Shown here: piece by piece, positions 56,606 through 58,782 of the stretch
How the letters are laid out: each line of letters starts with the position of its first letter
Position numbering within the stretch: position 1 is the stretch's first letter
DNA from: a phage
Length of the DNA: 64,000 nucleotides
Direction: 5' to 3' (one strand)
Sequence record: PZ534511.1
Program-made: the position numbers and the translations under genes
Notes under the pieces: generated by a model
The model's input: the letters and a program-made list of their open reading frames with translations, nothing else
Databases searched by the model: none
What the model was told of the DNA's origin: nothing

Positions 56606-57578
56606 TTATATTCAAAGGTGGTCGCAACACCACCTTCCGCACCTTTACGTGCTGCTGCATGTTACCATGCAGAGTAGACTATATCACCACCCATTTCAGG
56701 GTGCTTCGCTTTTCGAGCGCCATAAGCTTGCGCCCTACTCCCTCTCGGGATAGTCGTTGAACTACATTACCAATCGTAATTGTTTGAAATATAGGTGTAA
56801 GTCTTACGGTCTTTTATTCCTTTAACAACACTAAAACTTACTCCCCACTTCTTAGCTATTTTATTGACACACAAGACCTTATCACTAAGATCCTCGCAGA
56901 TACCTATTATCTTGTGCTCACTTATCCGATTAGAGGTTGGCACTTTTCTAAAGTTAAACTCTTTAGAAATATCTGGGTATACTGAGCCATTCTTTATACC
57001 ACTTACAAGTGGTTGATTGACACCGAACATTTCACAAATGTCTTTTACCCTTGCGCCTTGTTCTAACAGCCTACATATTTCAAGAGCAGTGGCATCATCC
57101 AGGGACCTGTATTTATTGACATAGTCCTTTTTAAGTCCCATTTCATGAGCGTGATGTGTGTTTTCCTCAGGCGTTGTCCACTCAAGGTTCCATGCGGCGT
57201 TATTCAACTTATTACCATCTAGGTGGTTTACTTGAGTTTTCACGCTGGGATTGTCATTATCAACAAAAGTCATAGCAATCACTCTGTGAACGAGCACTTG
57301 GAACTTTTTACCGTCCTCGCACAAAGTTACCATAGCATAGCCAGTCTTTTTCTGCACATTAGGATGGAGGAATTTATTAGAATACAGACTGTAAATTCTG
57401 CCATCGTATGTAGCACAATAATGATTGTAGCCTAAAAAGCCTAAATTTTTCATTTCAAACATCTCCCTACTACAGGTTCGGAAGGGTAATTATAGCTGCT
57501 GATTGTCCGTTTAGCAATCGGATTTCCCAGCAATTAACGAAGTTATTCGACGTGCATTTCTGCACGAAGCCACTATCA
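56606..57578 (-). mobile_element. Group I intron 2 in terL, with HNH endonuclease ORF
   Basis: P AATTGCTGGGAAA (~57523-57535), Q AATCAGCAGC (~57495-57504, compensatory to P), R GTTCAACGACTATCC (~56748-56762), S GATATAGTC (~56677-56685); boundaries approximate. Confidence 0.65.
56767..57462 (-). CDS. HNH homing endonuclease (HNH_3-like), intron-encoded
   Basis: NHLDGNKLNNAAWNLEWTTPEEN motif; C-terminal HTH-like region; between Q and R elements of intron 2. Confidence 0.75.
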   Translation of the reverse strand: MFEMKNLGFLGYNHYCATYDGRIYSLYSNKFLHPNVQKKTGYAMVTLCEDGKKFQVLVHRVIAMTFVDNDNPSVKTQVNHLDGNKLNNAAWNLEWTTPEENTHHAHEMGLKKDYVNKYRSLDDATALEICRLLEQGARVKDICEMFGVNQPLVSGIKNGSVYPDISKEFNFRKVPTSNRISEHKIIGICEDLSDKVLCVNKIAKKWGVSFSVVKGIKDRKTYTYISNNYDW

Positions 57579-57902
57579 TTTAATGGTTGCGCCTATAAAC
57601 GAGAATGACAACGGTCTTGGCTTGATCTCAACACCCAGTCCGTTAACCGTGGTGTATTTCTCTATCAACTCTTCTTTAGAGTCTCCCCAGATAAATTCAC
57701 CGTCGCGTCGGATAAAATATCTTTTCTTACCGCATTTCTCCGGATCTGGATACCCTTCATCGTCCAACCACCATCTAACCAGTTTGGCAAGCATGTGTTC
57801 TGAATCGGGGTTACAGCTGATAACCATTCTTGATGGATACTTTGACTGAGATCGCAGACGAGACATCAGATAGTCTATCTGCTCCCATTCGAATTGTGTC
57901 GT
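57576..57902 (-). CDS. terL: Terminase large subunit, exon 2 (ATPase C-terminal part)
   Basis: Frame open from stop near 57903-57905: TTQFEWEQIDYLMSRLRSQSKYPSRMVISCNPD; exact 3' end (5' splice site) probably just upstream of 57579. Confidence 0.55.
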   Translation of the reverse strand, partial: TTQFEWEQIDYLMSRLRSQSKYPSRMVISCNPDSEHMLAKLVRWWLDDEGYPDPEKCGKKRYFIRRDGEFIWGDSKEELIEKYTTVNGLGVEIKPRPLSFSFIGATIK

Positions 57903-58782
57903 TTATGTTCGGGCAAGGTCGCTAGTCTTGCCCCGCCATTTTCAGGCAGCTGCATGTCTCCATGCAGACCAGACTATATCTTATGAATGTGTAAATACTC
58001 TGCCGCTCTAAGAATAGTTTCCTCATCCTCTTGGAAGAAACCTAAAGCTCTGTTGCATTTATCACAAAGCAACCCTCTTACAGCACCAGTTTTATGGTCA
58101 TGATCAACACAAAAGAAATCTCTATACCCTTGCGTCCTATACTCATCAAGGGATATTCTACAAATGGCACACTTATGATCTTGATCTGAGAGTAGACGAT
58201 AGTATTCATCTTTTGTTATGTGAAATTTCTTCTCAATCTGATAAAACTTTTCACACATCTTACACCTGTTCGTAACCAGATATACTTTACCATAGTCACG
58301 TTTTGTGTAAAAACTATCAGCGAGCATACTTTCATGACAAGATTTGCATTCAAAAAGTTCACCTTTCTTCAGCAAGTCTTGAATAAACAATGCTGCGTCA
58401 TCTCTCTTAACCATATTTTTGTTTTTACGAGATCCACCCTTCCTGTAGTACATATAGCATTCCTTGCATGTACCTGAGTATCCATCCTTGCTCTTAGATG
58501 ATAAAAAGAAATCATCAATAGGTAGAACTCTTTGGCAATCCATACATTTTTTAGTATTACACATTCACCCTCCCGTTTCGAATCGCTTGATTCTACGTCT
58601 TTCGACTAGTCGTTGAACGTTCATCCTCTCGGATGCTTCGCTGCGGATTATCTAAATTAACACACTGTTACCATACCTTCGATCTCTCTTCGAAGCCTCT
58701 ATCATGTTACCATGACAGGTTGGTGGTGTCAATAATAAAGATTTCCCCGCAATTAGGGAGGTTTTACGAGAGCTACAAATTA
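57903..58782 (-). mobile_element. Group I intron 1 in terL, with HNH endonuclease ORF
   Basis: Minus-strand core elements: P AATTGCGGGGAAA (~58742-58754), Q AATCCGCAGC (~58640-58649), R GTTCAACGACTAGTC (~58604-58618), S AAGATATAGTC (~57972-57982); boundaries approximate. Confidence 0.7.
57974..58564 (-). CDS. HNH endonuclease (endonuclease VII-like) with CxxC zinc fingers, intron-encoded
   Basis: [24 protein letters not shown] motif; several CxxC pairs; between R and S elements of intron 1. Confidence 0.75.
   Translation of the reverse strand: [196 protein letters not shown]

Follow-up and report, generated by a model that had tools for sequence, protein, structure and literature searches.

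Two group I introns with putative endonuclease genes of different families in the terminase gene terL of a Vequintavirus

Introduction

In phage sequence record PZ534511.1, of which a stretch of 64,000 nucleotides was analysed (the window, here always meaning this whole stretch), the large-terminase gene terL is broken by two long insertions, each with an open reading frame (ORF) for a predicted endonuclease. How did a single gene come to hold two such insertions? Either one element was copied within terL or two elements arrived separately, and the endonuclease genes either came with them or were gained later. An initial annotation, made from the sequence alone, proposed two introns with related backbones and with unrelated, independently acquired HNH endonuclease genes in different intron loops. 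Our analysis indicates with high confidence that the group I introns of terL are two independent mobile elements of the phage IA2 type, each with a separately acquired endonuclease gene.

Both halves of this picture are already known. The split terL of phage rV5 was published by Kropinski et al. in 2013 (PMC3606486), and an intron-encoded Endonuclease VII-type endonuclease was described for this phage group in 2018. Our additions are small: a census of allelic states, the breakpoints of the endonuclease gene cassettes, the overlap of one ORF with its ribozyme core, and a linkage between exon bases and intron presence.

Results

terL consists of three exons and two introns

The window is from an rV5-like myovirus (Vequintavirus), an E. 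coli phage. Its 3.6-kb terL locus matches 159 phage records and is 98.3% identical to that of Escherichia phage HdK5. The gene spans 59208-55799 on the minus strand, flanked by spanin genes and the portal gene. All features of the locus described below are on this strand, and their coordinates descend from 5' to 3' unless given otherwise. Reading of the sequence and translation of the joined pieces gave three exons and two introns. Exon 1 (59208-58783; 426 nt, 142 codons) ends with ...VCFDEG, directly after the Walker B motif, and is followed by intron 1 (58782-57900; 883 nt). Exon 2 (57899-57583; 317 nt) begins with TQFEWEQ... and closes with ...FIGAT and the first two bases, AT, of a split isoleucine codon. 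After intron 2 (57582-56604; 979 nt), the first base of exon 3 (56603-55799; 805 nt) is the A that finishes this codon, and the exon continues with FDNPVCL... through the nuclease domain.

Intron-less alleles in related phages fix these boundaries. Phage PDX is colinear with the window save for the exact absence of 58782-57900, and phage WalterGehring save for the exact absence of 57582-56604. The span initially assigned to the two introns, 56606-58782, is exact at its right end and two bases off at its left end, where the true end is 56604. Excision of both introns restores the terL reading frame, in which the intron-less alleles are colinear to the base. The spliced product of 515 amino acids has a single unbroken Terminase_6N match (residues 25-294) that runs across both junctions, as well as a Terminase_6C match. 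The two insertion sites are highly conserved positions of the ATPase domain, VCFDEG/T (after Walker B) and GATI/FDNP, where the slash marks the point of insertion.

Both introns have a group I ribozyme core

A scan of the whole window with Rfam at gathering threshold returned only tRNAs and no intron match, because the ORFs break the introns up. In a permissive scan, the ORF-bearing intron 1 of the window scored 48.5 bits and intron 2 gave two partial matches of 35.7 and 21.4 bits, where the gathering score of Intron_gpI (RF00028) is 50 bits. The permissive scan detected no further group I introns in the 64-kb window. Natural alleles that lack the ORFs score far higher, with 84.9 bits for the 319-nt intron 1 of rV5 and 87.5 bits for intron 2 of 'Campylobacter phage C9'. 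For phage RudolfGeigy the scores are 95.6 bits (intron 2) and 84.0 bits. ORF-less intron 2 is 268 nt long in both C9 and RudolfGeigy. We also considered an intein and a free-standing endonuclease that splits the gene; the ribozyme matches and the non-coding sequence on either side of the ORFs exclude both. Across terL, the GenBank 'Campylobacter phage' records MG0656xx (UNVERIFIED) show about 98% identity to E. coli Vequintaviruses and have probably been given the wrong host label.

The 5' splice site of each intron has a U.G pair, and the intron ends with a G (57900 in intron 1, 56604 in intron 2). The T at 58783, the last base of exon 1, provides the U of the U.G pair in helix P1. In intron 1 the internal guide sequence (IGS) is at 58775-58768. 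P3 pairs 58761-58756 with 58574-58569, and P4 pairs 58752-58745 with 58647-58641. These are followed by P6 (58635-58622), element R, which is the 5' strand of P7 (58618-58607), P7.1 (58606-58597), P7.2 (58593-58580), a P8 stem that pairs 58568-58553 with 57999-57983, element S, which is the 3' strand of P7 (57982-57972), P9 (57966-57951), P9.1 (57947-57935), and P9.2 (57933-57911). An unconstrained minimum-free-energy fold of the 319-nt intron 1 allele recovered P1, P3, P4, P5 (much extended), P6, P7.1, P7.2, P8, P9, P9.1, and P9.2.

In intron 2 the IGS is at 57575-57570 and is followed by P2 (57565-57552). P3 pairs 57544-57538 with 56708-56704, and P4 pairs 57533-57527 with 57502-57496 (element Q), with P5 between them at 57522-57506. 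The P6 stem pairs 57496-57486 with 56770-56761. The 3' part of the core consists of R (56762-56751), P7.1 (56750-56739), P7.2 (56735-56715), P8 (56703-56688), S (56685-56677), P9 (56672-56655), P9.1 (56652-56639), and P9.2 (56636-56615).

The hairpins P7.1 and P7.2, between P7 and the 3' strand of P3, are present in both introns, in intron 1 by the minimum-free-energy fold and in intron 2 by a consensus fold. Under the published classification, rather than by a subgroup-specific model, these hairpins assign both introns to the phage IA2 type. The periphery differs between the two, with no P2 and a large P5 extension in intron 1 and a P2 and a short P5 in intron 2.

Base changes that preserve pairing are found in both introns. 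For intron 2 we compared five homologues, drawn from Vequintavirus, Avunavirus (phage 24-2-1), and Phapecoctavirus (phage nepoznato), in which the ORFs had been swapped for an artificial GAAA loop. Compensatory changes were found in 27 of the 85 consensus pairs and fall in P2, P3, P5, P6, P7.2, P8, P9, P9.1, and P9.2. For intron 1, the window and the rV5 copy differ by a compensatory change from C-G to U-A at 58714 and 58703 in the P5 extension, in a hairpin capped by GUAA (CUGUCAUGGUAACAUGAUAG vs CUGUUAUGGUAACAUAAUAG). Judged from these sequence features, both terL introns are probably self-splicing.

The two endonuclease genes belong to different families and occupy different loops

The coordinates initially given for the two ORFs, 57974-58564 and 56767-57462 on the minus strand, are exact. 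ORF1, in intron 1 (58564-57974; 196 amino acids), encodes a putative homing endonuclease of the Endonuclease VII or DHHRN type. It matches PF02945 (Endonuclease_7) with an E-value of 2e-21 and 76.1 bits (cutoff 23.6), the PDB structures of Hpy99I (9.6e-6) and T4 endonuclease VII (5.7e-4), and several endonuclease VII PHROG families, with phrog_2633 as the top match. The protein had been called endonuclease-VII-like with CxxC fingers, and it contains six CxxC motifs, the N-terminal four at residues 7, 33, 73, and 101. Its catalytic module comprises CAIC at 132, DHDH at 154, R164, CDKC at 167, and N171, and thus forms the motif set CxxC / DHDH / R / CxxC-N at the C-terminus with all DHHRN and zinc-ligand residues kept.

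The same family motif (CxxC...DHDH...R...CxxC-N) defines the likeness of ORF1 to F-CphI, the type member of the DHHRN family (Fang et al. 2018, PMC6083498). F-CphI is only distantly similar and is free-standing beside a psbA intron, and ORF1 has two extra N-terminal CxxC pairs. Fang et al. list a protein of Escherichia phage JES2013 in this family as intron-encoded (PMC6083498). Intron 1 of JES2013 is 99.2% identical to that of the window, and the JES2013 protein is an orthologue of ORF1. ORF1 is intact in at least 30 records at a protein identity of at least 95%. Outside Vequintavirus, the nearest ORF1-like gene found, also of the Endonuclease VII type, lies within an intron of the DNA-polymerase gene in Escherichia phage pEP20 (88.7 kb). 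This gene gives no pointer to a donor of ORF1, the host intron being different and the identity only 40% over 80 amino acids.

Comparison of alleles with and without the ORF places the ORF1 cassette at 58566-57985, where it stands in for the 18-nt P8 hairpin of rV5 (AAGCGATTGTTGTCGCTT). A new P8 stem of 16 bp arises by pairing between the two cassette ends. The Shine-Dalgarno sequence of ORF1, GGGAGG, lies in the 3' strand of P3 and its AUG within the 5' strand of P8 (58574-58553). Its UAG stop codon (57976-57974) lies within the 3' strand of P7, and the last codons cross the joining segment J8/7. Because these signals are interwoven with the ribozyme core, a ribosome and a folded ribozyme should exclude each other on any one RNA molecule. 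The proposed position of ORF1 between R (58618-58607) and S (57982-57972) thus stands as an insertion in P8, except that the last four codons and the stop enter J8/7 and the 3' strand of P7.

ORF2, in intron 2 (57462-56767), encodes a putative homing endonuclease of the HNH_3 or I-HmuI-like kind with 231 amino acids, or 228 from the second ATG at 57453, which is the likely start and lies nine bases past GGGAG. It matches PF13392 (HNH_3) with an E-value of 1.7e-6 and 28.0 bits (cutoff 24.8), in keeping with the family first suggested for it, and it has C-terminal helix-turn-helix modules. The match to phrog_59 has an E-value of 1.9e-51, and the protein is 100% identical to ORF65 of rV5, which is annotated 'HNH homing endonuclease'. 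ORF2 also matches I-HmuI of the Bacillus phage SPO1 DNA-polymerase intron (PDB 1U3E; E=3.1e-11) with the motif aligned (vnHldgNklNNaawNlew). The alignment covers ORF2 residues 11-154, and the HNH_3 motif and the N-terminal DNA-binding region are shared. I-HmuI nicks one strand; ORF2 differs from it in host gene, target site, and the C-terminal helix-turn-helix modules.

In intron 2 the cassette stands in for the 21-nt P6 hairpin of the ORF-less alleles (CAAGCCTGAATGTTCAGGAAG). A new P6 stem, in which GCUAUAAUUAC is paired with GUAAUGUAGU, closes the cassette, and the stop codon of ORF2 lies in the 3' strand of P6. ORF2 is therefore located between Q (57502-57496) and R (56762-56751), as had been proposed. 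It is intact in at least 15 records at a protein identity of at least 95%. The ORF2 proteins of the window and of Avunavirus are 82% identical and their genes 74% identical at the nucleotide level, with a nonsynonymous divergence (dN) of 0.118 and a saturated synonymous divergence (dS), which indicates purifying selection. Saturation of synonymous sites leaves dN/dS undefined, and the usable measures are dN and the contrast between amino-acid and nucleotide identity. A sigma-70-like match (TTGCTA-17 nt-TATAAT; consensus match only) is present at 57517-57489 on the minus strand, about 30 nt upstream of ORF2, and its -10 element is formed by the first bases of the HNH cassette.

The claim that the two genes sit in different loops is thus borne out by the allele comparison, with P8 used in intron 1 and P6 in intron 2. 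Hidden Markov model searches place the proteins in separate Pfam families (PF02945 and PF13392), and blastp detected no pairwise similarity between ORF1 and ORF2 (E=2.6). However, Endonuclease VII-type and HNH-type enzymes share the beta-beta-alpha-Me or His-Me finger catalytic fold (PMC6083498, PMC5714182). To call them unrelated goes too far, as they are members of different families in one superfamily.

Introns and endonuclease genes are distributed independently among related phages

We searched a phage collection with the spliced coding sequence and read intron content off the span of each match. The census covers 49 Vequintavirus terL genes of full length, chosen as a spread sample, with exons 94-99% identical. 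No intron is present in 23 of the 49 genes. Intron 1 is the only intron, without its ORF, in 7/49 and, with its ORF, in 9/49; intron 2 is the only intron, with its ORF, in 2/49 and, without its ORF, in 2/49. Both introns are ORF-less in three of the 49, an ORF-less intron 1 is combined with an ORF-bearing intron 2 (the rV5 type) in two, and both introns carry their ORFs (the window type) in one. Eight of the nine possible combinations of absent, ORF-less, and ORF-bearing states were therefore found.

Seven database records have the full architecture of the window. HdK5 (MK373780), phiWec193/196, and A140/A141/A142/A13b match it exactly, with 100% coverage and 97.9-98.3% identity over the 3.6-kb locus. 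In these records the gene appears as separate 'hypothetical' or 'terminase-like' fragments with the exons unjoined. The rV5 gene (DQ832317, ORF64ABC + ORF65), which its GenBank record joins from three pieces, has introns at both of the same insertion sites and an identical HNH ORF in intron 2. Its intron 1 is the ORF-less 319-nt form, whereas that of the window is 883 nt long with the Endonuclease VII-type ORF. Outside the genus, a Phapecoctavirus has intron 2 with its ORF at the same GATI/FDNP site. The TerL proteins are 35-42% identical and the introns about 66% identical in nucleotides, which points to horizontal spread of intron 2.

Silent bases in the flanking exons also differ between alleles. 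At site 1 (58783, 57897), alleles with the intron read GGT/ACA, and alleles without it read GGC or GGA and then ACG. At site 2 (57585), alleles with the intron read ACC AT/A and alleles without it ACA AT/A; the C at position -3 pairs with a G of the IGS. At each site, the exon bases that fit P1 follow the presence of the intron in 10 of 10 alleles. Co-conversion in the course of homing could account for this linkage, as could selection for a functional P1, alone or together; a further implication is that intron-less alleles may not all be equally sensitive to the endonucleases. None of the contiguous junctions in the collection has the exact sequence of the spliced junction, and no intron-less allele with intron-type flanks, which would be the footprint of precise loss, was found there, although this negative is weak for site 1, where megablast gave only five contiguous alleles. 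A mobile intron is recognised by its presence and absence at an identical site together with flanking markers that travel with it, and the terL introns display both.

Further group I introns were noted in these phages. Escherichia phage 24-2-1 (Avunavirus) has a group I intron that lacks an ORF (Rfam 34 bits; approximately 905-1147 of the terL sequence examined) at a third site, which follows ...DHQG and precedes site 1 of the window by about 11 codons. The ATPase domain of terL therefore has at least three intron sites in the subfamily. Some Vequintaviruses have group I introns in nrdD, and the 3' half of the nrdD intron of phage navn (segments 106-362 and 1279-1384 of the nrdD sequence examined) is 78% identical to intron 2. 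Phage LL12 has been reported with an intron in its DNA polymerase gene.

The shared block is typical of the subgroup

The initial annotation took a near-identical block in the 3' core of the two introns as evidence of related backbones. The block is real: 30 of 35 positions are identical (pairwise E=4e-7) between the copies in intron 1 (57980-57946) and intron 2 (56685-56651), each of which covers P7 (3' strand), P9.0, and hairpin P9. Within the window, the P9 core motif is limited to these two places, compared with 0.09 occurrences expected by chance. However, the block is the conserved P7(3')-P9.0-P9 consensus of phage IA2-type introns, and intron 2 is closer in it to the T4 td intron (33/36) than to intron 1. 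We also compared ORF-less cores with one another. The two terL introns align with only 41.9 bits. The intron 1 core scores 109 bits against an RNA-polymerase intron of PA7 and 81.5 bits against T4 td, and the intron 2 core scores 107 bits against the nrdA intron of phiTE and 100 bits against the nrdD intron of navn. Because the block is subgroup-wide and each intron has closer relatives elsewhere, the two belong to one subgroup but are not sisters. The backbones are thus related at the level of the subgroup, and the block is no sign of a special kinship.

Discussion

Independent origins and the order of events

The evidence above is best explained by two introns that reached terL independently and whose endonuclease genes have separate origins. 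It is very improbable that they are recent paralogues, produced when one backbone was duplicated or transposed within terL and then gained different endonuclease genes. Such a duplication would account for the 30/35 block, the identical 12-nt R elements, the similar P3-P4 segment (24/30), and the presence of P7.1 and P7.2 in both introns, but this likeness is limited to segments conserved across the subgroup. The mutual best score of 41.9 bits falls far below the 81-109 bits obtained with introns of other genes and phages, T4 td is closer to intron 2 within the block itself, and the introns differ in P2 and P5. A stronger competitor, though one that we consider doubtful, is that each intron came as a ready-made unit with its endonuclease gene and that the ORF-less alleles arose by later ORF loss, as in the decay phase of a homing cycle. 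The same ORF is found in the same P6 position in the Avunavirus and Phapecoctavirus outgroups, which implies that the composite element is old, and within Vequintavirus, cores with and without the ORF are 97-99% identical. On the other hand, the hairpins P8 (18 nt) and P6 (21 nt) have no sequence in common with the cassette ends and so are not deletion remnants, and the Rfam-consensus flanks GCCAA...AAGGUUCA are retained in the ORF-less P6 but missing from the ORF-bearing form. Both observations favour invasion of an ORF-less intron. Ready-made units would in any case alter only the order of events, since the separate origins of the endonuclease genes follow from two families, two loops, and two non-sister introns, whichever way ORFs were gained or lost. 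The independent acquisition proposed in the initial annotation is accordingly upheld by the ORF-less alleles of both introns and by the free assortment of allelic states.

We also think it quite unlikely that one or both ORFs have ceased to encode homing endonucleases and persist as relics or in another role, such as splicing helper or general nuclease. Phage homologues of Endonuclease VII mostly bear the annotation endonuclease VII, a junction-resolvase name, rather than as homing enzymes, both resolvase and endonuclease clades exist (PMC6083498), and the 23 intron-free genomes of the 49 imply that spread is incomplete. However, ORF1 and ORF2 are intact in the many records counted above, no DHHRN residue or zinc ligand is missing from ORF1, and ORF2 has its HNH_3 motif and is under purifying selection. 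The ORF1 motif is also C-terminal, as in the 'endonuclease clade' and unlike in resolvases (PMC6083498). Some observations weigh against our preferred explanation of two independent mobile introns with separately acquired genes. The ORF-bearing copies of the window, at 48.5 and 35.7 bits, fall just short of the Rfam gathering score, as is expected with large insertions, and the sole direct evidence of splicing in the subfamily is a reverse transcription PCR result obtained with the terL intron of a Certrevirus (PMC7344957). Only 10 alleles underlie the linkage between exon bases and introns, and the fact that all intron 2 outgroups carry the ORF speaks against invasion of an ORF-less intron there.

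A model for the terL introns

Under this explanation, each ribozyme core would fold and excise itself from the mRNA, so that the 515-amino-acid TerL can be made. One peripheral hairpin per intron would have been swapped for an endonuclease cassette, P8 for the Endonuclease VII or DHHRN type and P6 for the I-HmuI-like HNH_3 type. In a mixed infection, each endonuclease would nick or cut the intron-less terL of a relative near its own insertion site. Recombinational repair off the intron-bearing genome would then copy the intron together with adjacent exon bases (homing), which may also handicap the competing phage. The introns and their endonuclease genes would thus have been acquired separately and would assort independently in the phage population. 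A broader version, in which terL of E. coli Vequintaviruses, an essential packaging gene, is a natural system of two sites and three states that covers the whole homing cycle, with the endonucleases as weapons between phages and with translation of ORF1 and splicing mutually exclusive, is speculative and, taken as a whole, rather unlikely.

There is a weak hint that intron 1 was invaded by a free-standing endonuclease that already targeted terL (..TTCGA..GAGGGT/). In the ORF-less intron 1, the segment that ends just 5' of the ORF insertion point (TTCGAAACGGGAGGGT; 1019-1034 of the allele sequence) resembles the end of exon 1 (TTCGATGAGGGT; 58799-58783). This likeness at the 5' junction of the intron 1 cassette ranks 1-2 among about 300 positions at k=8-10 and 4-8 at k=12-15, and that at the 3' junction in intron 2 ranks 4-11; neither is significant after multiple testing.

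The invasion of introns by endonuclease genes is an established model, classically argued from the finding that distinct ORFs sit in distinct peripheral loops (PMC3984707), and an intron endonuclease is known to be used in competition between phages (PMC11620839). The closest parallel is provided by the td, nrdB, and sunY introns of T4, which have the same IA2 core type (over its 3' 79 nt, intron 1 shares 83.5% identity with td), likewise carry unrelated endonuclease ORFs in different peripheral loops, and have ORF-less relatives. Unlike the T4 introns, those of the window are both in one gene, their enzymes are of the His-Me finger rather than the GIY-YIG type, and ORF1 overlaps the P3', P8, and P7 strands.

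Elsewhere in the window, at least six tRNA genes are clustered upstream of terL at 60315-61124 on the minus strand. Two more long-arm tRNA-like matches, at 60759-60843 and 60963-61045, were obtained with the tRNA-Sec model and are below threshold.

Implications

Many GenBank records of these phages, which are candidates for therapy and biocontrol, split terL into two to four 'hypothetical' or 'terminase-like' fragments, and the 'recombination endonuclease VII' in such records is an intron-borne putative homing-endonuclease gene. The annotations of the BASEL phages and of LL12 recognise terL introns too. The exact splice coordinates given here allow the coding sequence to be joined correctly and help to avoid errors where terL serves as a marker for phylogeny or typing. 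The locus is a textbook case of introns and endonuclease genes that move independently of each other, and it leaves the current understanding of such elements unchanged. It could serve as an E. coli system for the study of homing, co-conversion, and intron-mediated competition between phages.

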